IMG/VR virus record: IMGVR_UViG_2851188095_000001
Span: 2,846 to 66,845 of that record
Origin: a virus
Taxonomy: Duplodnaviria; Caudoviricetes
Length of the DNA: 64,000 bases
Reading direction: 5' to 3' (one strand)
Shown: positions 30,459-64,000 of the stretch, in pieces
Position numbering within the stretch: the first letter of the stretch is position 1
Layout of the letters: each line of letters starts with the position of its first letter
Made by a program: the position numbers and the translations under genes
Notes under the pieces: generated by a model
The model's database searches: none
The model's input: the letters and a program-made list of their open reading frames with translations, nothing else
What the model was told of the DNA's origin: nothing

Positions 30459-31036
30459 TACACATCGCTCCCTTTCGAAATAATCTCCGCCATCACCGCG
30501 TCCGCCTTCGCGTGTAACTCCGCCAAGCTCCCATTATTCTCGATCTCGTAATCGACCGCGAATCCGTCCGAATGCAGCTCGGTTTCGTGCGTTAGGTCGC
30601 GGTCATCGAACGTGTCGCCTGCGTCGAGCATGCGTTGTCTGCGGATGGGCTCGTCACACGTTACGCGGATGATTACGAAGCCTTCCGCACGGAGGCGAGC
30701 GTATTCGTTAGGCTGGCGGAGGTCGGTGACTATGATTCGTTCTGGCGGGAGATATGGTTGATCAATCGCCCTAAACGCTATAGGCTCGTTGGCTTTGCGG
30801 AGGCAAGCGTTGACCCACACGTCCGGATCGAACGCTCGCATCGCCTGCCCCACGCCTTGTAACAGCGCGCGGGGCTTCCGATCATTGGCGAATAGATCCG
30901 GAAAGAGATCGCGGCAGACCTTACGGATTCCGTCTCCGAATGCAAGCCGGACGAATCCGTATTGTTGCGTGAGGTGGGCGGCGACCGTGTCCTTTCCCGC
31001 CCTAGCGCGCGCCGTGAGAGCTATTTTAACGCTCAT
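30458..31036 (-). CDS. Deoxynucleoside monophosphate kinase
   Basis: ARAGKDT P-loop, LQGVG, TDLRQPNE, HETE, IENNGS. Confidence 0.85.
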   Translation of the reverse strand: MSVKIALTARARAGKDTVAAHLTQQYGFVRLAFGDGIRKVCRDLFPDLFANDRKPRALLQGVGQAMRAFDPDVWVNACLRKANEPIAFRAIDQPYLPPERIIVTDLRQPNEYARLRAEGFVIIRVTCDEPIRRQRMLDAGDTFDDRDLTHETELHSDGFAVDYEIENNGSLAELHAKADAVMAEIISKGSDV

Positions 31037-31332
31037 TAGGCGGACACCTCCTCGCGATAACGCACGCCGTCGATGATGACGGTCGAGGTCGGCTCGAGTA
31101 CAGTGTACTCCGAGTGCCAAACGCCAGCTCGCGGACTTTCTACGAAGAGGCCGGCGGAGCACGTAGATACTACCGAAAGAACATCTCCGTTGTTGTAGTG
31201 ATCTTCTCTATCTGACCTATTGACGATCTTTATCCGTTCCCCAACGTCAGCCTTACGCTTTACCTCCGCATACTCACGTTGCACTCCGTTATCATCCGTC
31301 AATACCGTCACATTCGTTTGGTTCGTACTCAT
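31036..31332 (-). CDS. Hypothetical protein (domain shared with 44138-45208)
   Basis: EVKRKADVGERIKIVN...EYTVLEP. Confidence 0.65.
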   Translation of the reverse strand: MSTNQTNVTVLTDDNGVQREYAEVKRKADVGERIKIVNRSDREDHYNNGDVLSVVSTCSAGLFVESPRAGVWHSEYTVLEPTSTVIIDGVRYREEVSA

Positions 31333-31407: not shown

Positions 31408-31440
31408 ACTTAGATAGACGGGCGCGTTTCCGTTCTGCAC
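31408..31440 (-). promoter_or_regulatory. Phage promoter/operator motif copy 1
   Basis: GTGC-N14-CCCGTCTATCTAAGT, also at 48370-48402 and 62886-62918. Confidence 0.75.
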
Positions 31441-31443
31441 GTT

Positions 31444-31785
31444 TTATTCGAAAATAATTACGGTCATTTTCCGCCGACCGAACCGTAGTGCCTCCGTTTT
31501 GTTCGCGATAAAGACGTCGAGGTGTCCGGACGTTATTCGCGAGCCACGATCCTCGCACGTCAGCGTCCGTCCCAATTCCGGAATCATGACGCGAGTACCG
31601 AACGGATGGTCGCGCGAACATGCTGCGGTTACGCCTTCGCGCACGGGCTTGCCGGACGCAGTGATTCCGTGGGCTGGCGTGAAGTCGTCTCCGATGGAGT
31701 ACGCTGTGACTTCGTAGGTTGCGATGGTCGGCGCTGGAGGTGCGTGGGAAAATAGCGTAGAGAGAACGGCAATTAGCGTTAGGAT
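31444..31785 (-). CDS. Secreted 3D-domain (MltA-like) protein, probable ATC start
   Basis: VTAYS, GITASG, PFGTRV, EDRG..I.SGHLDVF; hydrophobic N-terminus; AAGGAGG before ATC. Confidence 0.8.
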   Translation of the reverse strand: MLTLIAVLSTLFSHAPPAPTIATYEVTAYSIGDDFTPAHGITASGKPVREGVTAACSRDHPFGTRVMIPELGRTLTCEDRGSRITSGHLDVFIANKTEALRFGRRKMTVIIFE

Positions 31786-34374: not shown

Positions 34375-35348
34375 TCATCGAATCGGACACGCGCCAGTAG
34401 CGCAATCGTCGTTCGCGTCCAGTTCTGATTGACCGCCCGTCTCATATCGCTGTAGTACCGCTGGATCAAACGGACGCATCTTCGCTTCCATCTCCTCGTA
34501 TTGTTCGCGCGAAATCGCCTCGTACGGTGCGAGCTGATACGTTCCGCCATCCAGCGCGAGAAAACTTACGCCGACGAAATCGTCCCAGTTTTCGTAGACA
34601 ATGCGTTCGACTTCGCTCCATTCCGTTGGCCTTACCGTAATCGTGTTCGACGAATTGTGCTCGGTGTAATAACGCTGGAATCGGAAGTACGTATCGAATT
34701 GTTCCGCCGCGCTTACGTCATCTTTCGTACGAGTCGCGCCAGACGCCACCGGAAAGTCGATGACGAGCGTTCGTGCGTTCGCCATCCGTTCCTCGTGCGT
34801 TTCACCTTGCGTTCCTACTTCGGGATTCACCGTCCATCCGAGGTCGATGACGGCGCGCGCCAACGGATCGGCTGCGTTAATGCGGATGCGACGGATATAA
34901 TACGGCGAGTGCGACCAGTGGAGTCCGGATGATACTCCGCCCGCGACTTGTGATAACGTGCCCTCCGGCTTAACCGTGGTTACGAGGAGTGGCGCGTTTA
35001 CACGGAGCTCCTTCGCGTATTTATCCGCCTCGCCACGCGCAACCGATCCTAGCCATTCAACTAAGTCTCGCTCCTGCCAATCGCTAAGTCCTACGGCGGC
35101 AACTGCATCTTTTAAGCCTGTTAGTGAGGTTCCGAGCAACCTATCGCGCTGTTGTACTGCGTCCCAATGCGGAAGTTCAAGCGTAACAAGCGTCATACGG
35201 AGACTTGCGCGGGCAGAACGGCATTGTGCTAGGTGTAGTCCAGGATAATCGAGATGTTTCGTACCATCTTCGTGATTGCGAACGAACTGCATCATGTTAA
35301 CGGTGGTCAAATTGCAGACTCCGTACGAGTCGAGAAGTATTTCTGCAC
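34375..35348 (-). CDS. nrdJ: Class II (B12-dependent) ribonucleotide reductase, exon 2
   Basis: (C)[28 protein letters not shown]-terminal CATGACPIR. Confidence 0.92.
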
Positions 35349-36276
35349 CAGTTATGTTGCGGCGATACCGATTCCGCACCGCCTCTACGCGTTTCCGCGC
35401 AGCTCAGACTATATCACCAGTCGGCTCAATGGATTAAATTACGCCCACTTGTACCCTAAGTCGGTTTCTATATCGCTCGGACACTTCGGAAGTATCTCGA
35501 AGAAATCGTTTAGTTTACGTGTAGGTACGCGTAGTCTACGTCGGTTCCAGTCAATCTGAACGTCTATTCCAAAGTCTCGTAGCATGCAGTCGCGCAGGAA
35601 GACTATCTCCTCGTCCGAGTATCTATCTGTGCATATCTGTACTCTCGTCGGTTCACCGTATAAATTGACTAAGTAGCCATCCCCGAGATACCATTGAAGT
35701 AGACTTATCGGCGTCAACTTTAAGTCTTGTGGTACGATCTTGAAGTGAGTGCCATCACTTCTTGTTTCGTACCATTTTTTCTCTAGTTGGGAGAAAGTTA
35801 CGTAGAATTTAGTAGATATCGACGAAGCGCTTTTTGATCCTGGAAAACTACCCTTGATGTGATTGAATTTCGCAGTGTAGTCAATTCCTTCTGAATCAAA
35901 TAGCTTGGAAATGCTTCGGATATAGGACGGATGTTTATTTGAGACAATCAAGTGCGCTGAGTGCTTGCTTTTATTTTGGTTAGACAGATAGCCGTCACCC
36001 AACATGAATCCAGTGAAATGCTGCATAAATTCGCCAGAAAGGTCTAACTCTTTAAAGAGTTCCCTCAAGTACTCATCTCCTTTGTTTTATTAGCGTAATT
36101 TATGAGCCGACTGCCTCCCGTTTCGAGCGCTCTTGCGCCCTACTCTACTCCCTTACGCTTTCGCGCGGTTTCGATAGTCGTTGAACGTTCCCTGAAGGGC
36201 TTCGCTGCTGATTGTCCTCGCCTTTACGCGTTAGGAGTTTCCAGCAATTAGAGAGGTTTTACATCCGCCAGCATTA
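35349..36276 (-). ncRNA. Group I intron (928 nt) in the NPC catalytic cysteine codon
   Basis: 5' exon ends AATCCGT with U.G in P1; AATTGCTGGAAA, AATCAGCAG, GTTCAACGACTA, GATATAGTC elements; terminal G; splicing restores GLNPCAEI. Confidence 0.92.
35439..36068 (-). CDS. Intron-encoded LAGLIDADG homing endonuclease
   Basis: FTGFMLGDGYL and LLQWYLGDGYL; AT-rich; lies in loop of P8 (CAGTCGGCTCA/TGAGCCGACTG). Confidence 0.9.
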   Translation of the reverse strand: MRELFKELDLSGEFMQHFTGFMLGDGYLSNQNKSKHSAHLIVSNKHPSYIRSISKLFDSEGIDYTAKFNHIKGSFPGSKSASSISTKFYVTFSQLEKKWYETRSDGTHFKIVPQDLKLTPISLLQWYLGDGYLVNLYGEPTRVQICTDRYSDEEIVFLRDCMLRDFGIDVQIDWNRRRLRVPTRKLNDFFEILPKCPSDIETDLGYKWA

Positions 36277-37588
36277 ACGGATTCAGTCCTTCGGCATTAG
36301 GACGTCTGCGTCGCGCTTCTTCTAAGTTGATAAAGCCCGGCTCGCCCTCGCCTTTCATGATCTCGAATACGAGATTCAACGTCTCCCTATCCGGCTTCTC
36401 CTCGAACGCAATCGAATTGTTACTCATACGCCTGTGATCAAGCCCCCAACGTCCGTCCCCGATACTCGCGATTGAATCGAACCAGTCCGGCTTCTTTCCG
36501 ATAGCCGCAAGCATTTCGCCGACTTTACGGTGCTGTGCGAGTTGCTCCTCCGTCCATATCCCGTTAATTCCGTACTTGGCGAGCATGCACTCGTAATCGT
36601 CCGCGTCGAACAGGAAGATTTCGGCCGTTCTGCGTACACCACCAACAACTACGTTCGCGCCGATGAGGTTTCCGATATCGAGTACGTGGATCGGGCGGAC
36701 GCGGCGATAACCTGTATCGGCATAGTCTCCGTTCCATTCTTCTTTTTCTAACACCATTTTTAACGGAGCCAGCGATGGATCAATCTCGTTCTTGAGTACG
36801 CGGTCGATCCCCGTAAACATTTCTGCGAGCGGCTCGTAGCCCGACGCGGTTCCGCCGAACGTATTCAAGCGCTCGCCCTTCGGACGGACGGAGTTGTACG
36901 AGATTTTCACGGTGTGGACCGCCTCATACCGCGGCTCCGTTAGGACTTCGAGATAGTAGCGCAGCGCCTCTACCCAGCCTTCCTTCGAATCCCCGACGTA
37001 AATTTTCGCGTATCCGTTATCGAGTTCGGTGATTCGCGTTCGTTCCAGGCGGTGAGACTTCGGTACGGGTTCGTATGGCGCGTTGATTAGCGTCACGTTC
37101 GTACGGATTGGCGCGAGTCCAGCCGCCATTTCCTTCGTACACTTGAATCCGACGCCAGTTCCGACTAGTAGCAGATAGAAGAGGTCGCCCATGTCCGCCC
37201 ATGAACGGATGTTTACGAATGAGCAATTGAAGTTCGCCAGCGGATACTTCTCCGCGACTCCGCCCTCGGAACCGCCGACCCATAAGCTACGGCCACTAAG
37301 GAATTGACGCAGGTTGAACATCGCATCGAACAGCTCCTCCGCCTCTTTCCGCAGCCCCTCGACGTCCGCCGCATATCCGATCTTCTCCGTATGCTTCAGC
37401 GCAAGTCCAACGTTATACTCAACGCTGCGGCGGCATGTCTCGCGCCAGTTCTCGCGTCGTCCCTTTTCCGGAAGCCAGCGTGAGTATGTGCGGTAGAATA
37501 CGAATTGAGCGAGCTCGTTCATGTGCGCAGGTGCTTCCGGATATCCTGCGATAAATTCGTCCGTCAGTAATTGCGTCATTTTCGTCAA
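36277..37588 (-). CDS. nrdJ: Class II ribonucleotide reductase, exon 1
   Basis: YRTYSR, SGRSLW, NFNCSF, GTGVG, VVGGVRRTA, GEPG, GLNP. Confidence 0.92.
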
Positions 37589-41283: not shown

Positions 41284-42360
41284 CTATTCGTCCTCCTTCG
41301 TTTTTGGCCGTCCATTTTCGAAATCCCATTCGTCCGGTTTGTGCTCATCCATCCAACGTTCCATGATCACGATGTCCGTCACCAACGGAACCGATAGCGA
41401 GACTGTCCGTGTCATCACGTCATTTACGAGTTCGATCGTATCTGGCGTGAGTTGATAGCGCGGCACCGATATGAGCAGTTCGTCGTGGATTGACGCGTTC
41501 ATTTCCCATCCGCGCTCTTTACAAATCCGCGCCATACGGTTTCCGTTCATCTTGAGGATATCCGCACCAGTTCCTTGGATGACCGCGTTAAATGCAGCGC
41601 GTTCCCAATATCCGACGAGTCCGGCTGTATCGCGTAGTACGTCAATTTCCGTTTGGATTTCGGTCAGTCTGCGTTGGTCTGCGTCCGATTTCCGGTCCTT
41701 CGCGTTCAGTCGTTTGCGTTCCGTATACAACCGAATCCGCCGCTGTTCGCTCTTTGCGGCTTCCGCAGCCACTCGCTTGTAATCCGGGAATCGGCGCTTC
41801 CGTCCGTAAAGCGTCTCAACGTAGCCCGTACGTTTCATTCCTTCGCGAATATCCGTTACCATGCGTTTGAAGGACGGGAACGATTCGTTAAACTGGCGAA
41901 AGAACATTTCCGCAATCTCGTCAGTCACGTTCATTTTCTTCGCGAACGACTTCGGAGACTGGTCGTAGGACACTGCGAGCACGCCCGTTTTCATCATAGA
42001 ACGCGGCTTGAACGTGGCTGTTGGATCATACGCACCGTCTATGCAATACTCGCGAGGTAAATTGAACGTCATCTCTGCCATTGTTTCGTAGTATCCAGTG
42101 TTCTCGATGAAAATCTGACGCATAGAGTTATCGCCGTATTTGGCGTACATGATGTGTGATTGGATACGCGGTTCGATTTGTCCGAGGTCAGCGCCTATAA
42201 ATACATACCCTTCTCGAGGTACAAAGCTCATGCGAACGCGGTTACCCTCACCTTTAGCCGGAATGTTCTGTAGGTTCGTTCCCTTCTTTGCTTTTGTATC
42301 ATCTGCGACCAACTTCCGTACAATCGCGTGATAGTTGTCGTCCGTGATCGTCAGTGTCAC
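41284..42360 (-). CDS. Family A DNA polymerase, C-terminal part
   Basis: NLQNIP, ADLGQIEPR (motif A), R..MKTGVLAVSY (B), NAVIQGTGAD, IHDEL (C). Confidence 0.92.
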   Translation of the reverse strand: MTLTITDDNYHAIVRKLVADDTKAKKGTNLQNIPAKGEGNRVRMSFVPREGYVFIGADLGQIEPRIQSHIMYAKYGDNSMRQIFIENTGYYETMAEMTFNLPREYCIDGAYDPTATFKPRSMMKTGVLAVSYDQSPKSFAKKMNVTDEIAEMFFRQFNESFPSFKRMVTDIREGMKRTGYVETLYGRKRRFPDYKRVAAEAAKSEQRRIRLYTERKRLNAKDRKSDADQRRLTEIQTEIDVLRDTAGLVGYWERAAFNAVIQGTGADILKMNGNRMARICKERGWEMNASIHDELLISVPRYQLTPDTIELVNDVMTRTVSLSVPLVTDIVIMERWMDEHKPDEWDFENGRPKTKEDE

Positions 42361-44141
42361 GCGACCACCTCCGTTTTGAACTCGTCCAGAATATCGACTG
42401 GTCGTCCGTTATAGCTTGAACTACTATACCGTCCTGTCGCGGTCCCTCCCGCCTTGAACTCCGAGTGCAGACGCCCATCCGGTTCCAGCGCATTAGGTAT
42501 CTTCGTCACGTACGTATTGAGTAATTTCTCGTACGCGGCTACGGTCGCCAACGGCTTGAGCGCTTCCTCTTCTTCGTAATACATATCGAGTACATCCGCA
42601 GCCGTCGAGCGCTTCTTTCCGCGTTGAACGAGGTGCGTCCGGTCTTTTACGCCCAGGTAGTCGTAGATGAGATACGCGATATGACTCGGGTTCGTCAACG
42701 AAAACTCTCCGTCATCTACAAATATCGGCGCGTGTTCTTCGTCTGCTGGCGCAAGTTTCTCCGCAAGTAATGTGTTGAGACGCACCTCTGCTTGTTGGTA
42801 CTTTTTCGTCTCCGGCTTGCTCGACGTCATCGTTTCGCGTTGCTTGCGTATAGACTCGTCACGCTTCGCAATCTTCTTCCGTTGCGTCTCGATCCAATCC
42901 GCAACCTTCTTCGCGTTGATCGTCCGGTCCATCTTGCGAATAAACTCCGAATCGATTCCGTACGCTTCGAACAGTTTGCGCTTGGCTTGCGCCAGTTTAT
43001 CGTTGAACTCCGTTTCTAGCGCCTTCATTCCGTCAAGATCGATTTCGAATCCGCAACGCACCATAAACACGTCTGTTTCCGGTAACTTCGAGTCAATCTC
43101 CGCGTAACATTGGAGCAGTCGGTTCGTTTTCGTCATCGTTTCGAACTGCCACTCGAACAGTTTCCATCCGTACAAGACGTCCTTAATCGCGTAGATTCCG
43201 ACCAGTTCCGTATTGAACGGTGCGGGCGATCTAGGCCCAAATAGGTCTTCAAAGGTGTAAATAGGTCCTTCAATCCCGAACCAACGCCCGTACTTCGCGG
43301 TCAACGGTTTCAAACCGTACGCTTCCTCGTGCTCGTTCATCAGCCGCATGGCGTCGAGCGTATCCCACACACAACCGCCGATTGTGTATCCGTCGTTTTC
43401 CGCGACATGTAGGTCATACCGCGCGCTTCCCATATGGAACGTCTTACCGTGCTCAGGTCGCGATAAGTACGGTTTGATTGCCGCCAGCACTTTCGAACGT
43501 GTGAGCTGTGGATCGCCTGTCTTGTACGCGTAATGATCCGGAATACCCTCGAATCCACGCACTTCCCGCATGTCTACGTGTCCGTACGGAAGGTAGTAGC
43601 CTTCGTTCAGTATCGGCAGCCACACGCTGAATCCGATTGAGAGGTCGAGGTACGAGTCTACGCCCGTTCCCTCGAAGTCTCCCGCCGTCATCGACTCGAC
43701 GCCCAGGATGCGGAAGCGATCGCGCCATTCCGTACGCTGACGCCTCACTTCTTCGCGTATCCGTTCAACAAACGCTGGCAATTGCGTATCGTCCGTCAGA
43801 ATGTAGAAGTTATCCGGTTTGGTCGCGACTACTTCACGAATCCGTTGCTCGCGGAGAGCCTCGCCATGTTGGCGCATGACGGCGGCTCCCATCGCAAGCA
43901 CGCTTGATTTCGTCAGCTTTCCGTTCGGGAGACCGCCTATCTCTCCCGAATCGTAAGCCTTGCGTGCGGCTTCGTATAGCTCGCGTTCCTTATCCGTAAA
44001 CTTCATCACGCCAATCCGTTCCCACGCCTGCTCGACCGTCTCAGCCGCCTTCTTCCACTCAACCGCCGCCTCGACTCGTTCGCGCTGGGCTTCGGACTCG
44101 ACCGTTGGGGAACGGAGGTTTAAACGGAGGGTTACGCTCAC
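42357..44141 (-). CDS. Family A DNA polymerase, N-terminal part (3'-5' exonuclease, thumb)
   Basis: DFEGTG, RYDL, YAIKD, DGRLH..F..GGTATGRYSSS. Confidence 0.9.
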   Translation of the reverse strand: MSVTLRLNLRSPTVESEAQRERVEAAVEWKKAAETVEQAWERIGVMKFTDKERELYEAARKAYDSGEIGGLPNGKLTKSSVLAMGAAVMRQHGEALREQRIREVVATKPDNFYILTDDTQLPAFVERIREEVRRQRTEWRDRFRILGVESMTAGDFEGTGVDSYLDLSIGFSVWLPILNEGYYLPYGHVDMREVRGFEGIPDHYAYKTGDPQLTRSKVLAAIKPYLSRPEHGKTFHMGSARYDLHVAENDGYTIGGCVWDTLDAMRLMNEHEEAYGLKPLTAKYGRWFGIEGPIYTFEDLFGPRSPAPFNTELVGIYAIKDVLYGWKLFEWQFETMTKTNRLLQCYAEIDSKLPETDVFMVRCGFEIDLDGMKALETEFNDKLAQAKRKLFEAYGIDSEFIRKMDRTINAKKVADWIETQRKKIAKRDESIRKQRETMTSSKPETKKYQQAEVRLNTLLAEKLAPADEEHAPIFVDDGEFSLTNPSHIAYLIYDYLGVKDRTHLVQRGKKRSTAADVLDMYYEEEEALKPLATVAAYEKLLNTYVTKIPNALEPDGRLHSEFKAGGTATGRYSSSSYNGRPVDILDEFKTEVVA

Positions 44142-47693: not shown

Positions 47694-48347
47694 TTAAACG
47701 GCAAGGTATTCGCGAATGTCACCAAAGCGATTGGCGTCGTAATGGCGAGAAAGGCGAGTCAATTTCCGTTTAACTGTTTCGTGGTGCATCCCCAGCGCTT
47801 TGGCGAGCGTTGACAGGTTTTTGTACTGCGCGAACATCTCAATTATGGTGGTTGTTGCCTCATCGCTAGTAGTCTTGGAGGACTCGATGAGGTAGGAGAC
47901 AAGGGAAACCTTGTCTTTTTCTTTTTTATCGAACATTTCTCGAAACACCGTTTCTTCGGTTGGCGACGAATATGCGGTATCGAATTCTTCGGCGATTTCG
48001 AATGTTGGCGCATCCGAATCGTCGTTTGCGTTAAGGCTTACGCTTTCGTGTCGCTGGCGGTACTTGTTACGCTCTAGTAAATCGATGCAGGCTCGTTTGA
48101 TCGAACGGTTCATCATGTGCGAAAAGTTAGCGGAACCATTGTATGACTTCGCACACTTCCATAGGACTTCGCCATACATCGTTTCTATCGTGGTGACATC
48201 GCTAAGTGTGCGTTTGGCGTCCGCATACTTTCGTCGATCCCATTCAGGCCGAAATGTGTTGTATAACTCGTTGAATGCCGCCTCATCGCGGTGGTCTCGA
48301 TATTGGATCGCGAGGCTATTGAGTTTTTGTTCTTGTTCCATTCTCAT
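47694..48347 (-). CDS. Phage RNA polymerase sigma factor-like protein
   Basis: DEAAFNELY, LWKCAKSY, FSH....IKRACIDLL (region 2); C-terminal HTH. Confidence 0.75.
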   Translation of the reverse strand: MRMEQEQKLNSLAIQYRDHRDEAAFNELYNTFRPEWDRRKYADAKRTLSDVTTIETMYGEVLWKCAKSYNGSANFSHMMNRSIKRACIDLLERNKYRQRHESVSLNANDDSDAPTFEIAEEFDTAYSSPTEETVFREMFDKKEKDKVSLVSYLIESSKTTSDEATTTIIEMFAQYKNLSTLAKALGMHHETVKRKLTRLSRHYDANRFGDIREYLAV

Positions 48348-48369
48348 CTTCCTTTCGTTTTTACCTTAC

Positions 48370-48402
48370 ACTTAGATAGACGGGTGACTTTTTCTTTTGC
48401 AC
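48370..48402 (-). promoter_or_regulatory. Phage promoter/operator motif copy 2 (upstream of sigma gene)
   Basis: GTGC-N14-CCCGTCTATCTAAGT. Confidence 0.75.
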
Positions 48403-48475
48403 ACTTTTTCCCAAAAAACTTTTTAGGATTTTTGTATAATGGAAGCTATAACCTGAAAACAAAGGAGATTTACAA

Positions 48476-48682
48476 ATGTTTACATATGAGCCACTGTTCA
48501 GAACCTTGGATCGGAAAAATATGGGTCTAATTGAGGTTGAGAAGGGGTGTAATCTCTCTAGCAAAACCACCTCCAAGTTTCGTAAGAATGGAGTAATGAA
48601 TATTGATACACTTGCACGAGTTGGTATCTTTCTTGATGTCCCAATAGAAGAAATTGTTGCAATTAAGCGTGACAAGAAGTAG
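48476..48682 (+). CDS. Small XRE HTH repressor (candidate cI, no peptidase domain)
   Basis: YEPL..L...TLARV..FLDVPIEEIV; divergent from sigma gene; AAGGAG RBS. Confidence 0.82.
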   Translation: MFTYEPLFRTLDRKNMGLIEVEKGCNLSSKTTSKFRKNGVMNIDTLARVGIFLDVPIEEIVAIKRDKK

Positions 48683-48698
48683 AGCAACCCTTGTTCTA

Positions 48699-48746
48699 AT
48701 CTTACCATCGTATATCAATGATGCTCATTGTAATAGTATTGATATA
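48699..48746 (-). promoter_or_regulatory. Candidate receptor operator (TATATCAAT-N18-ATTGATATA) plus extended -10 TGgTAAGAT firing antisense to repressor
   Basis: Inverted repeat 48711-48719/48738-48746; -10 at 48699-48704. Confidence 0.6.
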
Positions 48747-48786
48747 ACCCTTGATATTATCGACATATTACGACATTTTTGGGGTA

Positions 48787-48820
48787 TAAAAAAGGCACAA
48801 GCTATTTCTAACTTGTGCCC
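48787..48820 (-). terminator. Terminator after propeptide gene
   Basis: GGGCACAAG...CTTGTGCC followed by T-run. Confidence 0.85.
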
Positions 48821-48828
48821 TAATAAAC

Positions 48829-48948
48829 TTACCAACCTGGTCCGCCATCGTTTAACTGACTTACTGGTTCTGTTGTCACACTCTCTGCACTTACTACTCC
48901 AGCGAACGAGAATACGAGCGATAGTATCAACATGATTTTAAATGTCAT
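48829..48948 (-). CDS. AimP-like propeptide MTFKIMLILSLVFSFAGVVSA-ESVTTEPVSQLN-DGGPGW (39 aa)
   Basis: GAGGAGG RBS, Sec signal, directly after HTH-TPR gene. Confidence 0.88.
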   Translation of the reverse strand: MTFKIMLILSLVFSFAGVVSAESVTTEPVSQLNDGGPGW

Positions 48949-48963
48949 GATTACCTCCTCAAC

Positions 48964-50256
48964 CTATGATGTTTTAGTAATAGCCAAATCAAGAAGGCTA
49001 TTGAATAGTCTATTCTGCTCATCTGTGCAAAAATCCTTGTGCAAATGAAAGTCCTTAACACAATTTAATATGTAGGCGGGAAGTCCTAAATCTGCGTATA
49101 TCTCCATGGCTTTTAAACTTAGATCAATTGCTTCTCGCTGTTGTTGTTTCTTTGCAAACAAGACTCTTGAGTACATTAACTGAAATCTAGCAAATAACCT
49201 TTTTTTGAAGGGGTTGTCCCCTACATTCCTCTCGAATTTCTGCATTTCTAAATGGTATTTCTCGATCAAATTGTCAGCCTTTTCTATCATGCCGTGCCTG
49301 ATACATACGTCTAGAATGCAATGAATATATGGAGCGACTTCTGATTGATTTCTGTCTAGCCAGCATACGAATTCTTCAATTACTTCGACTTTTCCGCTTG
49401 CGATCATTGAGTTGAAACGATTGCCCTCGCCCCAGATTTTAAATTCGCTTCTTTCTTCACCTAACAGCGCTATAACTTCCTCTGCGATCTCTATGGCTTC
49501 TGAGTATTCTTTGAGGTAGTATTTTGCACGTAGTTTGTACAGTTGTGCATTGCCATACTGAACTTTGTCTTTCTGGCATATTGCCTGACTAGCCATTTCT
49601 TCTGATAGCTGAACTACCTTCTCCCACTTCTCTAAAACGAAGTAACAAGCAACAACTTTTCGATACGCCTCTAATTTATCAGTGGTTATGTTGGAAAGGT
49701 AGCTTGATAATTGAATCGCGGAGTCATATGCATGATCCATGTTCCAATTCCTTACAATACAGTACCGCTTGTACAGGGTATTTGCCAGTCTTTCAGACAG
49801 CTTGTCAGTCTCTAATTCGATTACAATGTCGTAGAAGCGTACTGCCGCACACTCCATGTTCTTACTGACAAGTTCGTCCGCGATCCCCAGAAATACTTCT
49901 GTATTTGACTGGCCTTCTTGGACCATCTCGTTAACTAAATCATCCGCTAAATGGGAACATTCAATCTCATTACATTTAATGATAAAGTCTCTGCACTTGC
50001 TACGCAGGCGGTTTCCTACCACATCTTTACATTCTGATATATAAAAGGGATAGAAATGTCCAGACGGTAGGTCTAGCACTGATGTCAATTCGTCTAGTGT
50101 ATTTAAGGTAAAATGACGTGTTCCTTTTAATGACGCAGAGAGGTTGCCCTGCTTCACACGCCCATTGGTTTTGGTTTCTACATCTTTTTGAGTTATATTT
50201 CTCTTTTTCATCTCTTCAAAGACAATGTTTTTTAAAGTGTTAGGCATTACTGGCAC
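48964..50256 (-). CDS. AimR-like RRNPP receptor (HTH + TPR)
   Basis: N-terminal XRE HTH, helical TPR-like repeats, about 430 aa, AT-rich, adjacent propeptide. Confidence 0.82.
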   Translation of the reverse strand: MPVMPNTLKNIVFEEMKKRNITQKDVETKTNGRVKQGNLSASLKGTRHFTLNTLDELTSVLDLPSGHFYPFYISECKDVVGNRLRSKCRDFIIKCNEIECSHLADDLVNEMVQEGQSNTEVFLGIADELVSKNMECAAVRFYDIVIELETDKLSERLANTLYKRYCIVRNWNMDHAYDSAIQLSSYLSNITTDKLEAYRKVVACYFVLEKWEKVVQLSEEMASQAICQKDKVQYGNAQLYKLRAKYYLKEYSEAIEIAEEVIALLGEERSEFKIWGEGNRFNSMIASGKVEVIEEFVCWLDRNQSEVAPYIHCILDVCIRHGMIEKADNLIEKYHLEMQKFERNVGDNPFKKRLFARFQLMYSRVLFAKKQQQREAIDLSLKAMEIYADLGLPAYILNCVKDFHLHKDFCTDEQNRLFNSLLDLAITKTS

Positions 50257-50291
50257 CCCCGCGGCATCAACCTTTACTTTCGTACAGGTTC

Positions 50292-50320
50292 ATTATATTG
50301 TATATCAAATCAATTGGCAA
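50292..50320 (-). promoter_or_regulatory. SigA promoter of receptor TTGCCA-17-TATAAT
   Basis: -10 at 50292-50297, -35 at 50315-50320; spacer holds a TATATCAA half-site. Confidence 0.75.
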
Positions 50321-50404
50321 TAGTTGTAATCTGAAATACCATGTCTTTCCACACGTAGTTTTTTAAAGTAAACTAGAATGACCACTTTATAGGAGGAGCG
50401 TTCG

Positions 50405-50641
50405 ATGCGAAATGTAATCGAGCGCTGCCTTCTCAAAGACTTACTTAAAAAACGGGACATCACTCAAGCAGAGTTTGCCCGAAGAATGGGCATACCACGC
50501 CAAACTGTTACCAAATGGCTAAAGCTTGAGGATATCATGAGAGCCGACTCGGCATATCGAGCTTCACTAGTTCTAAACTGCTCGATGGAAGATTTATACG
50601 AATGGATTAAGGAGTCCGAGGAGAAGGTGGCGGACAAGTAG
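50405..50641 (+). CDS. XRE HTH regulator
   Basis: ITQAEFARRMGIPRQTVTKW; LNCSMEDLYE. Confidence 0.88.
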   Translation: MRNVIERCLLKDLLKKRDITQAEFARRMGIPRQTVTKWLKLEDIMRADSAYRASLVLNCSMEDLYEWIKESEEKVADK

Positions 50642-50674: not shown

Positions 50675-51631
50675 TTATACGGTTACAATCGGATTAAAAC
50701 GTACCCGCCGCGCCCTCTCGATATAACGTTCGACCGCGCTCACATCCGCAACCTCATTCGGGTCCTTGTATCGTATCGGATACCCCGCGACCCTCACGCG
50801 CACATATGGCGCGAGCAACTCGATCACCTTCCGCTTGAACTTTTGTCCCGCCGCGTCATGGTCCGCCATGATCACGATTTCCTCTAACGGACTCCTTCGT
50901 ATAATCTCCGCCTTCTCTTCGTTAAACGCCGACCCTCCGCTCGCAACAGCGTACTCTCCCGTCATCATTATGTACATGGCGTCAATCTCCGCCTCTACGA
51001 TGACCGCTCGTCGCACCTTATCGCGATAAATCACGTTCATACCGTAAATCATTTCGCGGATCGGTCGTCCGCCCTTCACGTACCAGAACGTTTTCTCCGC
51101 TGCCCTCCGGAACTTTACGGTACCGAGCGTACCGTCCGGCAGAAACCACGGAATCGTTATCGCACGCGATCGGTTACAGTATCCAACGCCCATCATCCGC
51201 TGTACCTCCGGACTAATTCCGCGCGATTCCAAATACGGGTGGTGCCGATCATACTCGCGCAAGATATCCACGTTGAGCGCTCGCCTATTGCGCTCAAGGC
51301 GGAGTGTGTTCGAGAGGTCTAGCGTTAAGGCGTCCGTATCGACAGCGTAGTTGCCGCCGTACTTATACCGGAGGTATTCGAGCGTCTCTTCCGTTGTCTC
51401 TTGGCGTAGAAACGAAAGTAGACTTACGATGCCGCCGCGTGCGAATTGCGAATCCGTCGCGCCACTGTCGCCCCACGAACCGGCGTTTGCCGTTGGCGTG
51501 TCCGCGAGATAGACGTAGAATGACGGATGTGTGTCGTATCGGAACGGACTGGCTGCGGTTAACTTGTCCGCGCCCCAGTCAGCATTTCTCCACGGGAACT
51601 CGGATAACTCCGCTCGAATGTCGATTTTCAC
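50675..51631 (-). CDS. DNA primase (Toprim)
   Basis: SPFRYD..PSF, YLESRGI, IVEAEIDA, DHDAAG, KDPNE. Confidence 0.9.
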   Translation of the reverse strand: MKIDIRAELSEFPWRNADWGADKLTAASPFRYDTHPSFYVYLADTPTANAGSWGDSGATDSQFARGGIVSLLSFLRQETTEETLEYLRYKYGGNYAVDTDALTLDLSNTLRLERNRRALNVDILREYDRHHPYLESRGISPEVQRMMGVGYCNRSRAITIPWFLPDGTLGTVKFRRAAEKTFWYVKGGRPIREMIYGMNVIYRDKVRRAVIVEAEIDAMYIMMTGEYAVASGGSAFNEEKAEIIRRSPLEEIVIMADHDAAGQKFKRKVIELLAPYVRVRVAGYPIRYKDPNEVADVSAVERYIERARRVRFNPIVTV

Positions 51632-51898: not shown

Positions 51899-53242
51899 TT
51901 AGGGATTGAACCGTTGGGCTGCAACTGGTCCGGTCTCCATCTCTCGTACTATACCGTAGTTAGGTAGATATATTACCTCAACCGTAGTCCCTTCGCCACC
52001 GTTCCGCCCCTTCCCGATCTCGATTACGCCGAGCCCGTCGTTCGCGACCGTATCGATCCCGAGCACGTTCGTAGCGTCTTCGAGTACCGCTTTCGTCTTC
52101 TTGATCTCTACGCGTTGGGGTGGACGGAGTTCACGGTGTCCGTCGTCACCTTTCTCGTCCTTCACTTCGTCAGCCTGCGTGATTACGTGAAGGACTACAC
52201 CGTACTTTCCTGCCAGCCTCCGCAACTTCTTCGATGTCTCCGCCGCATCGCCGCCCGAGGTCTTACTCGTGTTAACCTCGTAGTCCATGTAGTAGAACGG
52301 ATCGATTACGACAACATCCGAATTTGTAACGAGTATGTCCGCCTCTAAATCGCGGACCCTGCGCGAGTCGAAGTCCTGGTCATCTACGGAGCGAATAACG
52401 ATGTTCCCCGTCATCTCTTCGGAAACTCGCGTTAGGAACGCAATGAACGCCGCTTCGAAATCTTCCGCAAGCTGTCCGCGTAATAACGCCATGTTATCGA
52501 ATCCGGCCTGTTGCACTATTCCGTTTATCTCCGCATCGCAGACACCTAATCGTGCGGATATCGACGTATAGGCACGCGCCATCCATTCGTATCGCGACAT
52601 CTCCATTACCCACACGAGAACACTAGCTCCTTGGAACGCAGCCTCGATCGCTTCCTCCATCGTCATGACCGATTTTCCTCGCCCAGGTCGCGCATACCAC
52701 GTATACATGTTTCCAGAGAGATAACCGCCAATCTCGCGATTAATGGTCGGAAATTTACTCCGCCATATCTTGAACGAGCGTCCCTCCTTACGCTTATGAT
52801 ACTCGTCCAGAAACGCGGCAGTATCCCGTTTAATGTCCGTGCCTACCTTCGTCCGGACCGTTGTCCCCGCCGCAATCCCATCGAGCTTGCCGCGCACCCA
52901 CTCCGCAAACTCCTCCGGTTTCATCGCGGAGAAATTCGCGCCGAACTCCGGACTCGTAAAGAACGCGTGTTGGCGGAACTTGGCGGAGCCCTCCTTCACC
53001 TTGCGCGCCAGGAATTCGAACGAGTCCGCCACCTCCGGCATGTACGTAAAGCCTGCGACCTCGGCCGCGACCGTACGATAATCCGGAACCCGTCCGTTCG
53101 CTTCCGCATACTCGCGGATAAACCGGAGCGCCCTCCGTTCGGCTTCCGTACCCATGTGCGATTCGTCGATGCTGTAGCGCGTGAGGGCGGCCGGGTCGTT
53201 TGCGTCGATTACCTTGCTTAATAGCGATTCTCCGTATGCCAT
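51899..53242 (-). CDS. dnaB: Replicative DNA helicase (DnaB family)
   Basis: ARPGRGKS, MEMS, VVIDP, ITQA, KGRNG. Confidence 0.9.
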   Translation of the reverse strand: MAYGESLLSKVIDANDPAALTRYSIDESHMGTEAERRALRFIREYAEANGRVPDYRTVAAEVAGFTYMPEVADSFEFLARKVKEGSAKFRQHAFFTSPEFGANFSAMKPEEFAEWVRGKLDGIAAGTTVRTKVGTDIKRDTAAFLDEYHKRKEGRSFKIWRSKFPTINREIGGYLSGNMYTWYARPGRGKSVMTMEEAIEAAFQGASVLVWVMEMSRYEWMARAYTSISARLGVCDAEINGIVQQAGFDNMALLRGQLAEDFEAAFIAFLTRVSEEMTGNIVIRSVDDQDFDSRRVRDLEADILVTNSDVVVIDPFYYMDYEVNTSKTSGGDAAETSKKLRRLAGKYGVVLHVITQADEVKDEKGDDGHRELRPPQRVEIKKTKAVLEDATNVLGIDTVANDGLGVIEIGKGRNGGEGTTVEVIYLPNYGIVREMETGPVAAQRFNP

Positions 53243-53264
53243 TCGTGATCACCCCCGTTGATAG

Positions 53265-53315
53265 GAACGTTTGTTCTTAACTCCGATTGTACAAGATGCT
53301 TGTATGTGTTTGCAA
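53265..53315 (-). promoter_or_regulatory. SigA promoter (TTGCAA-18-TACAAT) with LexA SOS box at 53265-53276
   Basis: GAACGTTTGTTC, identical to the yolD box. Confidence 0.8.
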
Positions 53316-62340: not shown

Positions 62341-62796
62341 TCAAGTAGAGCCATGTACGGATCGAGCCGTGTCGGGTGCGCTTGACATGGCTTCCGCCTC
62401 CCCGCTAAATATCGCAAGCTGACTGACCGGAAGCACCGTATACCGCATGTTATCGAACCGCTGACTCCCGTCCTCCCTCCCCTTTGTCGCGTGTACCAAC
62501 GGACGTCCCCGCCATCTGTACGCGATCAACGAACTGATCCGCTTGCCTGCCGTTTGTCTCGATACTCCGAGTCTCTTCGCGATATGCTCCTGCGACGGGT
62601 AGCAATCGCCGTTTGCGTCCATGAACGAAGCGAGTACGCATAGCGTCTGCCATCGATCCGCGCCCATGTCCGCGATAAGTCCGGAGATTGCGGCGTCGAC
62701 GTACATCTTAACGAAGATGCGCGTTTCGCGGCGTCCGGTAGTGACGGAATATTCCGACTGGGTTTCGACTGATACGAGGTTCTGCTCGGCGGACAT
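62341..62796 (-). CDS. HTH replication initiator-like protein
   Basis: LASFMDANGDCYPSQEHIAKRLGVSRQT. Confidence 0.78.
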   Translation of the reverse strand: MSAEQNLVSVETQSEYSVTTGRRETRIFVKMYVDAAISGLIADMGADRWQTLCVLASFMDANGDCYPSQEHIAKRLGVSRQTAGKRISSLIAYRWRGRPLVHATKGREDGSQRFDNMRYTVLPVSQLAIFSGEAEAMSSAPDTARSVHGST

Positions 62797-62885: not shown

Positions 62886-62918
62886 ACTTAGATAGACGGG
62901 CGCATTTAAATCTCGCAC
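62886..62918 (-). promoter_or_regulatory. Phage promoter/operator motif copy 3 (head of early operon)
   Basis: GTGC-N14-CCCGTCTATCTAAGT. Confidence 0.75.
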
Positions 62919-62928
62919 ACTTTCGGAC

Positions 62929-62963
62929 AAAAAAAAATAACGCCAGCCCCGAAGGACTAGCGT
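62929..62963 (-). terminator. Terminator after integrase
   Basis: ACGCTAGTCC-TTCG-GGGCTGGCGT followed by T-run. Confidence 0.8.
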
Positions 62964-64000
62964 AGTATTTTTCGTTCTTTGTTTAATTTTCCCGTTATCA
63001 GGTTAATTGGAGAGTATAAGTCGTGCTGACTCTTAATAGACTTTGTTGAAAGATGCGTGTACTTAATTACCATTCGCAAATCAGCATGGCCAAGAATCAT
63101 TTGAACATGACGCATGTCCATTCCTGCTTCAAGTGCCATAGTAGCCGCTGTGTGTCGGAACAAATGCGGGTATATCCGGATTTTCAGCCCTGCCTCTTTT
63201 GCGTGCTGCTTTAACCTGTTCCGGAACTGGTCATCTGTGATGGGCTCACCATAGTTCGCCAGGAACACGAAATCAGAATCGAATTCCTCGCACTCTTTTA
63301 TTAACTCTCGCAAAAGGCTAATCGTCTGTTTCTGTAAAGGTACGATACGCGCACGCCGTGTCTTCGTGATCTTCCCACTGAGATGTATCGCTCCCGTATC
63401 GAAATCAATGTCCGATTTCTTTAACGTAACGACCTCGCCAATGCGCATGAACCCGTCCAAAAGAACGTTCATCATGACAAAATCGCGGAAGCCCGCGTAG
63501 GAGCGCTTATTTGGCGTCTGTAGGAGTTTTTTGAGTTGCTCCGGTGTCATAACCCTAATTTCGCTTTCAGGCTCAGAGACGGGCTTTACGGAGTCGAACG
63601 GGTTATTATCGATAAGCCCCTCCGTTTTAAGAAACCGAAACATGGTCCGCGGCCCCTTTAGCCGTGTATTCACGGTTACAGGCGATAGCCCTTCCGTCAT
63701 GTTCTCTTCGCGCTTATGTGCGTGCCCTTCCCATTTACGCTTGTCCGTCAGCATCCACGAAATGTAACTGCGAATCAGTTCCGGAGTAATCTTCGTAACA
63801 TCATGCGGTATTTTTTGCATCGTCATGTAGTCCGTAAGGAAACGGTAGTTTTCACGATAAGTCTCTAGCGTTCTTGGCGACTTACCCTCCGCAACCTTTG
63901 CGTCATAAAATACCGAAAACAAATAGTCTAGCGAAAACTTCTTCGGGCCGTCTCCGTCGCGTTGAAATTTAACGCGCTTACCCGTACGTCTGTCCGTCAA
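62957..64000 (-). CDS. Tyrosine recombinase/integrase (start at or beyond window edge)
   Basis: GFMRIGE, TKT, PHLFRH, LGH, Y in KYTH. Confidence 0.93.
   Translation of the reverse strand: MTDRRTGKRVKFQRDGDGPKKFSLDYLFSVFYDAKVAEGKSPRTLETYRENYRFLTDYMTMQKIPHDVTKITPELIRSYISWMLTDKRKWEGHAHKREENMTEGLSPVTVNTRLKGPRTMFRFLKTEGLIDNNPFDSVKPVSEPESEIRVMTPEQLKKLLQTPNKRSYAGFRDFVMMNVLLDGFMRIGEVVTLKKSDIDFDTGAIHLSGKITKTRRARIVPLQKQTISLLRELIKECEEFDSDFVFLANYGEPITDDQFRNRLKQHAKEAGLKIRIYPHLFRHTAATMALEAGMDMRHVQMILGHADLRMVIKYTHLSTKSIKSQHDLYSPINLITGKLNKERKILR

Follow-up and report, generated by a model that had tools for sequence, protein, structure and literature searches.

The locus analysed here surrounds positions 48348-50404 of the window, by which we mean the whole 64,000-nucleotide (nt) stretch of viral DNA (Duplodnaviria; Caudoviricetes; IMG/VR record IMGVR_UViG_2851188095_000001), which is part of a provirus record of 66,845 bases. 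On the minus strand it encodes a receptor with a helix-turn-helix (HTH) domain and a tetratricopeptide repeat (TPR) superhelix, followed by a short propeptide and an intrinsic terminator; beyond a small HTH gene on the opposite strand (HTH68) lies the gene of a sigma factor, and a second small HTH gene (XRE78) is divergent from the receptor (Table 1). The locus is best described as arbitrium-like in its working, with the AimR family excluded for its receptor and with a true arbitrium counterpart at the same node in Bacillus phages. On balance, we favour the view that it is an Alo-type peptide quorum-sensing cassette of a temperate phage, placed at the node between two small HTH genes and a sigma gene, and gating that phage sigma factor. 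Such a cassette would probably allow the phage to decide between lysis and dormancy according to population density. An arbitrium-like switch had been proposed here in an earlier reading of the DNA (hereafter the original prediction); its layout of receptor, propeptide, terminator and operator held, but the receptor family proved not to be AimR.

Synteny of the cassette and its sigma gene

The strongest evidence comes from synteny. Bacillus phage 268TH002 has the same backbone as the window from integrase to polymerase, with a helicase loader, DnaB, primase, two small opposite-strand HTH genes, a sigma gene, an SSB-like gene, a nuclease and a family-A DNA polymerase (PolA) in common; after the primase and the opposite-strand genes gp49 and gp50 it carries a true AimR, and then sigma. 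In that genome we also found an unannotated AimP-like open reading frame (ORF) of 42 amino acids (aa), ending in AINAIGG (L004 6440-6568; record 36939-37067), which overlaps the 3' end of the AimR gene and is followed by a terminator and the sigma gene. Two receptor families that show no detectable sequence similarity to each other thus occupy one and the same regulatory node, in front of homologous sigma genes. This AimR-AimP-terminator block directly upstream of a homologous sigma gene backs the claim of the original prediction that the cassette, with a small HTH gene on the opposite strand in between, is directed toward a phage sigma factor. The arrangement appears to be unpublished; the genome announcement of 268TH002 makes no mention of AimR, arbitrium, sigma, lysogen or integrase.

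The loci of the two phages are alike in having an HTH-TPR receptor, a short secreted propeptide, an intrinsic terminator, inverted repeats and a homologous sigma gene as the output. They differ in the peptide, which ends in DGGPGW in the window and in AINAIGG in 268TH002, and in the exact placement of the pair: AimR-AimP lies between the HTH genes and the sigma gene, whereas the window cassette lies between the two small HTH genes, and its output must therefore cross HTH68 in antisense. The G+C content is 0.35-0.41 across 48200-50400 and 0.52-0.58 in the flanks; judged by sequence, the low-G+C insert, which lies between the two small HTH genes, comprises little more than the receptor and propeptide genes with their control DNA. 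Both of these genes have homologs in 268TH002 (gp49 is 29% identical to XRE78, E 5e-14, and gp50 is 31% identical to HTH68), and thus belong to the phage backbone and not to the inserted cassette. The 68-aa HTH gene over which an antisense transcript had been predicted to run is present and matches Pfam HTH_26 (22.7 bits, cutoff 22), with homologs at 69% (P0194) and 72% (P0195) identity, but it is a backbone gene rather than a component of the cassette. Both HTH68 and XRE78 may act as repressors, and XRE78 is a candidate lysogeny regulator.

Other relatives share parts of the same order. A viral contig (L003) carries a DnaC-like gene, DnaB, an opposite-strand XRE gene, primase, an opposite-strand 81-aa gene (XRE81, 27% identical to XRE78) and sigma, with no receptor; its sigma protein matches only residues 109-217 of the window sigma factor, at 48% identity. 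Bacillus phage Mgbh1 has a primase, two small opposite-strand genes and a sigma-like gene, and tblastn located the sigma homolog also in 268TH007 and phi18-2. No close relatives with DNA were found by blastn against phages, by receptor and alignment searches of genome, viral and metagenome contigs, or by a primase search of viral contigs. Homologs of the receptor (54% identity), HTH68 (69%) and sigma (66%) are each listed from a JGI contig of 63,437 bases, and so it is probable that one relative retains all three genes. The same backbone without a cassette, with AimR-AimP and with an Alo-type pair forms a natural comparison set, which bears on the idea of such modules as interchangeable plug-ins.

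The cassette might also be a passenger (moron) that serves host traits or nothing related to the phage, its position by the sigma gene being incidental. Chromosomal paralogs of the receptor regulate Spo0E-like genes, and phage-borne quorum-sensing systems have been predicted to act on host sporulation (10.1101/2021.07.15.452460). We nevertheless regard the passenger explanation as quite unlikely: in Bacillus phages, the node ahead of the homologous sigma gene is held by an unrelated receptor family, AimR; no further target gene is found downstream of the cassette; and one relative appears to retain receptor, HTH68 and sigma together. Gating of the phage sigma factor by the cassette is the explanation that we prefer. 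Tentatively, and with less confidence than in the gating itself, we propose that AimR, in Bacillus subtilis phages, and an Alo-type receptor, in the present Paenibacillaceae prophage, were independently plugged into the node of one phage lineage ahead of an orthologous, autoactivating sigma factor that drives early and middle operons, and that population density would decide between lysis and lysogeny via a sigma cascade, and not via a repressor, an antirepressor or a toxin-antitoxin pair.

To our knowledge, only two arrangements are known by which arbitrium-type signals are wired to the lytic programme, MazEF/SroA-F in SPbeta-like phages and AimX antirepressors acting on AimC. From the window locus and the corresponding Bacillus one, we suggest a third kind of output, in which the signal acts on a phage sigma factor that has its own set of promoters; different receptor families may, moreover, be swapped in at the sigma node. 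Phage peptide signalling with a defined target would be extended from Bacillus to Paenibacillaceae. We found no link in the literature from arbitrium or RRNPP systems of phages to a downstream sigma factor, a provisional result, as the key arbitrium survey of Stokar-Avihail et al. 2019 and supplements in general fall outside the coverage. In the three most relevant papers the word 'sigma' has 0 occurrences, and the papers listed by a literature search on this link both deal with SPbeta, judging from title and abstract.

The gene after the cassette appears to be sigma-like, as originally proposed. The protein matches TIGR02937, below its cutoff, and phrog_1740, its homologs carry PF04542 or the source name sigma factor, and 48 of the 50 best Foldseek matches are sigma factors or RNA polymerase complexes containing one, with E values of at least 8e-3 and TM-scores of at most 0.35. 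Its AlphaFold (AF2) model has an N-terminal helical domain, with pLDDT of 89-98 over residues 1-100, and a PDB profile search returned the extracytoplasmic function (ECF) sigma factors SigE, SigW, SigK and SigH at E 0.1-0.9 only. Named homologs come from Brevibacillus, Paenibacillus, one Bacillus sp. and a single entry labelled Bifidobacterium; from these sources, a Paenibacillaceae host is likely.

The putative promoter set of this sigma factor consists of three matches in the window to a bipartite motif, AAA(G/A)(T/C)GTGC-N14-CCCGTCTATCTAAGT, against 0 in 100 shuffles. All three (A, B and C in Table 1) are intergenic and on the coding strand, and they form the only chain of repeated 12-mers in the window. 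The upstream box AAAGTGTGC alone is not enriched in the window (11 matches, 10.45 expected), the enrichment being confined to the complete motif. Near the sigma gene of 268TH002 there is no repeated motif of at least 12 nt, and the 170 bases before the start of that gene contain no sigma-A-like promoter on its strand. Two boxes with a spacer that is constant in length but variable in sequence, a downstream box containing CGTC, and a copy ahead of the sigma factor's own gene are typical of the promoter set of an autoregulated alternative sigma factor. From its sequence, the window motif looks like the promoter set of an alternative sigma factor, probably the phage's own. It resembles autoregulated ECF and phage sigma cascades in the two-domain sigma factor, the CGTC-containing -10 element and the motif copies before its own gene and other operons, but differs from autoregulated ECF sigma promoters in that the -35 element AAAGTGTGC is without the usual AAC. 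The L003 contig keeps a -35-like AAAAAGTGTGC at the same distance from the sigma start together with the C-terminal half of sigma (region 4), while the downstream box and the N-terminal half are not kept. This pattern fits a phage sigma factor that reads the motif promoters, at one site only. The 11-mer upstream of sigma that is common to L003 and the window has a BLAST E of 7.6, which is not significant, and its value is only positional. It is possible that the motif promoters are read by a host ECF sigma factor.

The receptor, its propeptide and their family

The HTH-TPR gene named in the original prediction was examined at the level of fold. The AF2 model of the receptor is all-helical, with pLDDT 95.9 and pTM 0.89, and a 64-sequence receptor profile matched XRE-type HTH proteins of the PDB over positions 5-77 and TPR proteins over 181-333. 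A TPR fold is thus present, and the protein has the AimR-type architecture of an N-terminal HTH and a TPR-like superhelical peptide-binding domain. Foldseek placed generic TPR proteins (LGN, LapB) at the top, NprR at rank 36 and RapF at rank 38.

That the receptor is an AimR was nevertheless rejected when profiles and sequences were compared. The NCBIfam AimR model NF038310 (cutoff 70 bits) gave no match to the 430-aa receptor ORF at E <= 0.1, and the AimR of 268TH002 scored 190.6 bits on the same model in the same library. BLASTP of the receptor against this true AimR gave a best E of 0.92, that is, no detectable similarity. AimR was absent from the best 50 Foldseek matches, from all 11 single-sequence matches in the PDB and from the best 60 of 130 profile matches there. 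The receptor thus falls outside the AimR family by sequence, as neither NF038310 nor BLASTP relates it to a true AimR.

Single-sequence searches with the receptor were nearly blank, and a word-indexed database held only two close relatives (58% and 54% identity); an exhaustive profile search, however, returned 179 representative clusters, mostly of 410-490 aa. Receptor-family loci were recovered from Brevibacillus dissolubilis and Paenibacillus sp. (n=3), with 14 profile matches in the Brevibacillus genome and 6 in the Paenibacillus genome. Phage matches were limited to two Brevibacillus phages and, as far as seen, the family is confined to Paenibacillus and Brevibacillus. Downstream of two chromosomal Paenibacillus receptor-propeptide pairs, a Spo0E-like gene (PF09388, E 1.9e-7 and 1e-12) follows the terminator.

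Alo systems have many paralogs per genome, propeptides of 32-50 aa and Spo0E-like targets (Voichek et al. 2020, PMC7425212). The window system is like them in its HTH and divergent TPR receptor and in the propeptide with a hydrophobic N-terminus immediately downstream, which at 39 aa is within their 32-50 aa range; its receptor family likewise shows Paenibacillaceae confinement, many paralogs and Spo0E-like genes by some of them. It is unlike them in being phage-borne and in having as its target a phage sigma factor, reached across an opposite-strand gene. The receptor looks like an RRNPP-style peptide receptor, and its family is probably of the Paenibacillaceae Alo (AloR/AloP) type, judged by the published description: it has many paralogs per genome, G-x-G-W is a frequent end of its propeptides, and two of its chromosomal members are followed by Spo0E-like genes.

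The propeptide starts 16 nt past the receptor stop. It consists of a signal-peptide-like N-terminus, MTFKIMLILSLVFSFAGVVSA, followed by ESVTTEPVSQLNDGGPGW, with the C-terminus ...NDGGPGW, of which the last 6-7 residues are presumed to be the mature signal. A downstream short ORF with a hydrophobic N-terminus was found for 12 of the 19 distinct family receptor ORFs examined (duplicate loci of one gene left out), and by the filter used 7 of the 19 are without one. The 12 propeptides end in DGGPGW (window), HGGIGW (Brevibacillus phage Emery), DDFGPGW, DDFGMNW, EDFGIGY, WDDPGW, WLDPGW, THGSGGW, IHGVGWF, IHGGVNNF, NHGVGHT and APDPWV, with a C-terminal W in seven. In the 43-aa Emery gp61 (L001 5233-5364), HGGIGW occurs twice, directly after the predicted signal-peptide cleavage site and at the C-terminus, so that two signal copies might come from a single precursor.

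Operator-like repeats and a proposed route to the sigma gene

The arbitrium order of receptor, propeptide, terminator, palindromic site and output gene is found in the window locus, with the palindrome as a putative receptor site. The individual elements of the original prediction were recovered in the DNA, namely the TTGCCA-17-TATAAT promoter, the 39-aa propeptide with its ribosome site, the terminator, the widely spaced 36-bp palindrome and the leftward extended -10 (Table 1).

The palindrome begins about 37 nt past the T run of the terminator and is a perfect inverted repeat, TATATCAAT-N18-ATTGATATA, whose arms are the only exact copies of their 9-mer in the window. When the 109-nt intergenic stretch was shuffled 5000 times with dinucleotides preserved, 104 shuffles contained an inverted repeat with arms of at least 9 nt and a spacer of 8-32 nt (P = 0.021); such repeats were present in 11 of 1162 natural 109-nt windows, and over 3 kb there are four perfect 9-nt inverted pairs. 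The palindrome is moderately more than chance at its location and is not remarkable over 3 kb. The heptamer ATATCAA has nine exact copies in the window, three within 48712-48757 and one at 50302-50308; hence four of the nine fall in some 250 bases of cassette regulatory DNA, for which a rough composition-based expectation is about 0.1. The half-site TATATCAA does lie in the spacer of the receptor promoter as predicted, but as a 9-mer with at most one mismatch it is not above chance (14 matches, 12.4 expected).

A backbone repressor, HTH68 or XRE78, might use the ATATCAA sites as its operators, blocking read-through from the cassette and shutting the receptor promoter in the lysogen, while the receptor acts elsewhere. 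The two small HTH genes flank the sites, one of which is in the promoter region common to XRE78 and the receptor, and the palindrome is centred near -36 of the putative promoter, a position typical of repressors too. However, half-sites 27 bp apart centre to centre are a hard span for an HTH dimer of 68-78 aa, all four sites are inside low-G+C cassette DNA, and no exact ATATCAA was seen by eye, with no search run, in the matching regions of L003 and 268TH002, which keep the HTH genes. We therefore consider operators of a backbone repressor rather improbable and prefer the receptor as the candidate binding protein.

A direct repeat, AACCCTTG, at 48686-48693 and 48746-48753 flanks the palindrome (16-nt family D4, 81% identical) and could be a trace of the operator's building or insertion. 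Formation of an RNA hairpin by the palindrome was considered and rejected: the arms are unpaired in the minimum-energy fold, and the centroid keeps only the terminator hairpin and one 5-pair stem outside the palindrome. In Brevibacillus dissolubilis (L027), another receptor-propeptide pair of the family is followed, some 177 nt beyond the propeptide stop and near the ribosome site of the next gene, by a perfect 10-nt inverted repeat, TAAAATGGAG-N18-CTCCATTTTA, whose 18-nt spacer equals that of the window palindrome. At the other end of the cassette, a plus-strand promoter-like site for XRE78 (TTGGCA-17-TACCAT, 50314-50342) has its -35 box overlapping that of the receptor promoter (TTGCCA) on the opposite strand, inside the palindromic TTGGCAA; the receptor and XRE78 genes may therefore compete for RNA polymerase.

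With the receptor binding at these sites, a mechanism may be proposed as follows. The strong sigma-A promoter at 50320-50292 would make receptor and propeptide (the DNA itself shows the promoter, both genes and the ribosome sites), and the propeptide would be secreted, processed to a C-terminal peptide and re-imported. At low peptide, the free receptor would occupy the ATATCAA sites just past the terminator and sustain minus-strand transcription, either by activating the extended -10, which is without a -35, or by suppressing the upstream terminator in the manner of AimR. The transcript would pass antisense through HTH68 and on to the sigma gene. Sigma would then reinforce its own expression via motif A and turn on copies B (early/replication operon) and C (middle operon), leading to the lytic programme. 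As the peptide builds up, the receptor would become inactive and sigma would be off, with lysogeny as the outcome; the remaining ATATCAA site, between the -35 and -10 boxes of the receptor promoter, may provide autorepression.

The order of propeptide, terminator, palindrome and output gene is the one established experimentally for phi3T and SPbeta, where AimR, from a site directly past the terminator, lets transcripts started at the aimP promoter escape termination, an effect that depends on the terminator-to-site distance (PMC10769878). Since AimR is an antiterminator and not a classical activator (PMC10769878), the extended -10 is not the only route and, by analogy, activation and antitermination may both be considered for the window. 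The terminator scan gave no terminator-like site on the minus strand between 48700 and 48348, so that a transcript produced by activation or by antitermination would cross HTH68 in antisense and enter the sigma gene.

The sign of the response is taken from better known receptors. AloR13 activates the next gene, and the hexapeptide SHGRGG turns that activation off (PMC7425212); by analogy with AloR13 and AimR, the peptide would turn off the output of the window cassette as well. The opposite logic, known from PlcR, NprR and Rgg, would have the receptor-peptide complex activate transcription toward sigma, with high density leading to lysis or induction. We find this unlikely, given that AloR13, the only tested Alo-type member, and AimR are both switched off by peptide (PMC7425212; PMC10769878), and that it would be out of the ordinary for a temperate phage to answer high density with lysis when it decides on entry.

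The layout may further be compared with that of extended arbitrium, aimR-aimP-aimX/aimC-aimL. Common to both is a small single-HTH gene, here HTH68, opposite to and just downstream of the peptide gene, followed by a regulator, taken to be pro-lytic, in the direction of the receptor. The differences are that HTH68 has 68 aa and AimC 80-140 aa (10.1101/2025.11.23.689978), that the position of aimL is held by a 215-aa sigma factor and not by a small Cro-like HTH protein, that the receptor is not an AimR, and that the window has no convincing AimX ORF, the sole Shine-Dalgarno-like candidate being a 67-aa ORF from TTG 48564. The full five-gene layout is present in Brevibacillus phage Emery, whose receptor is 27.6% identical to that of the window and which carries a 120-aa XRE repressor-like gene and then a Cro-like gene. 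The view of aimX as an antisense RNA over a cI-like gene, on which the original prediction drew, is a 2019 hypothesis; for extended arbitrium systems, a 2025 preprint reports a small AimX protein as the effector instead (10.1101/2025.11.23.689978).

An AimX-like small antirepressor, encoded on the minus strand antisense to HTH68 and binding HTH68 or XRE78, has to be weighed as the effector, with transcription into sigma being secondary. A 115-aa minus-strand frame is open at 48361-48708, and within it the TTG at 48564, with GGAGG at 5 nt, would start the 67-aa ORF; this GGAGG, however, is formed by the Thr-Thr-Ser codons of HTH68, and the ORF is without a family match and would overlap the ribosome site and promoter of HTH68 as well as sigma motif A. 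None of the 13 further minus-strand starts listed in the interval before the sigma gene has a Shine-Dalgarno-like sequence. Although AimX candidates of 29-80 aa sometimes overlap aimC (10.1101/2025.11.23.689978), and Emery has a 60-aa gene at this place, we judge such an effector very unlikely in the window; transcription into sigma is the more likely output.

Several points weigh against the proposed control of sigma by the cassette. That the ATATCAA sites are bound by the receptor, and not by HTH68 or XRE78, we infer solely from the position of these sites in the low-G+C cassette. The extended -10 is weak, its hexamer TAAGAT agreeing at four of six positions and having no -35, and for these reasons the promoter scan did not list it. 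A like geometry is seen in Emery, where ATTTCC-N23-GGAAAT-N6-TATAAT stands ahead of the 60-aa gene convergent with the 120-aa XRE gene; an inverted repeat, a 6-nt gap and a -10 were found together at 3 of 12 family loci, compared with 0.67 expected, but 7 of 200 shuffles also reach three, and since the geometry was first noticed on two of those three loci, the independent support amounts to one locus in 10. As to the sigma factor, its match to TIGR02937 (E 3.6e-7, 30 bits) is under the cutoff of 42.9, it is only 23.6% identical to its homolog in 268TH002, and motif copy B before the early genes also fits recognition by a host ECF sigma factor. Moreover, read-through may be dispensable, given that the sigma gene is preceded by a promoter of its own. 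Finally, in extended arbitrium the antisense interaction is reported to be most likely not consequential, with the small AimX protein as the effector (Kabel et al. 2025 preprint, 10.1101/2025.11.23.689978).

Feature positions and genome setting

Table 1. Features of the locus and of the surrounding genome, in window coordinates.
Feature	Position	Strand	Remarks
Integrase	62957-64000	-	12.6 kb from cassette
Motif copy B	62923..62886	-	past integrase terminator, upstream of first early gene (HTH_36 protein, 62341-62796)
DnaB helicase	51899-53242	-	
Toprim primase	50675-51631	-	
XRE78, 78-aa XRE/Cro-C1 type HTH	50405..50641	+	divergent from receptor; Pfam HTH_26 E 1.2e-11, HTH_3 E 4.7e-10
Sigma-A type promoter of receptor-propeptide operon, TTGCCA-17-TATAAT	50320..50292	-	11/12 consensus positions
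Half-site TTGATATA	50301-50308		spacer of receptor promoter
Receptor, HTH + TPR superhelix	48964-50247	-	427 aa from likely ATG at 50247; ORF 48964-50256 (430 aa)
Propeptide, 39 aa	48829-48948	-	GAGGAGG ribosome site; signal-peptide-like N-terminus
Intrinsic terminator after propeptide gene	48784..48821	-	13-pair stem at 48821..48792, then T run
Operator cluster (candidate), three ATATCAA/TTGATAT heptamers	48711..48759		palindrome 48711-48746 and third copy 48751-48757
Extended -10-like element TGGTAAGAT	48707..48699	-	6 nt downstream of right operator arm; candidate activator-dependent promoter
HTH68, 68-aa Cro/C1-type HTH	48476..48682	+	convergent with cassette, divergent from sigma; AAAGGAGA ribosome site
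Motif copy A, AAAGTGTGC-N14-CCCGTCTATCTAAGT	48407..48370	-	directly upstream of sigma
Probable sigma-70 family (ECF-like, regions 2 and 4) factor, 215 aa	47694..48341 (or to 48347)	-	TIGR02937, phrog_1740, homologs
Motif copy C, AAAACGTGC-N14-CCCGTCTATCTAAGT	31445..31408	-	about 70 nt upstream of 98-aa gene 31036-31332

The genes around the cassette are read from the minus strand. On the integrase side they encode an HTH_36 protein, a ParB-like protein, a DnaC-like loader, DnaB and primase, and below the cassette follow a PD-(D/E)XK nuclease, a split PolA, an exonuclease and then a ribonucleotide reductase, which a LAGLIDADG gene interrupts. The original placement of the cassette in the middle of a replication module, about 13 kb from the integrase, agrees with this gene order.

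Two sites, 53264-53277 and 676-689, share the core GAACGTTTGTTC with a perfect GAAC-N4-GTTC, which we take to be a LexA/DinR-like box; one of them is directly upstream of the DnaB gene. A scan for LexA boxes gave 0 sites at no more than one mismatch within the cassette regulatory regions.

The family-A DNA polymerase at 41284-44141 consists of two neighbouring ORFs (594 aa and 358 aa) with a 4-base overlap, between which the Pfam DNA_pol_A match is divided; candidate explanations are gene splitting, a frameshift and a programmed event. Within 34375-37588, a LAGLIDADG homing endonuclease ORF (35439-36068) lies between the ORF of a ribonucleotide reductase alpha domain (36248-37588) and a 334-aa ORF without a family match, a placement that suggests an intron- or intein-interrupted reductase gene.

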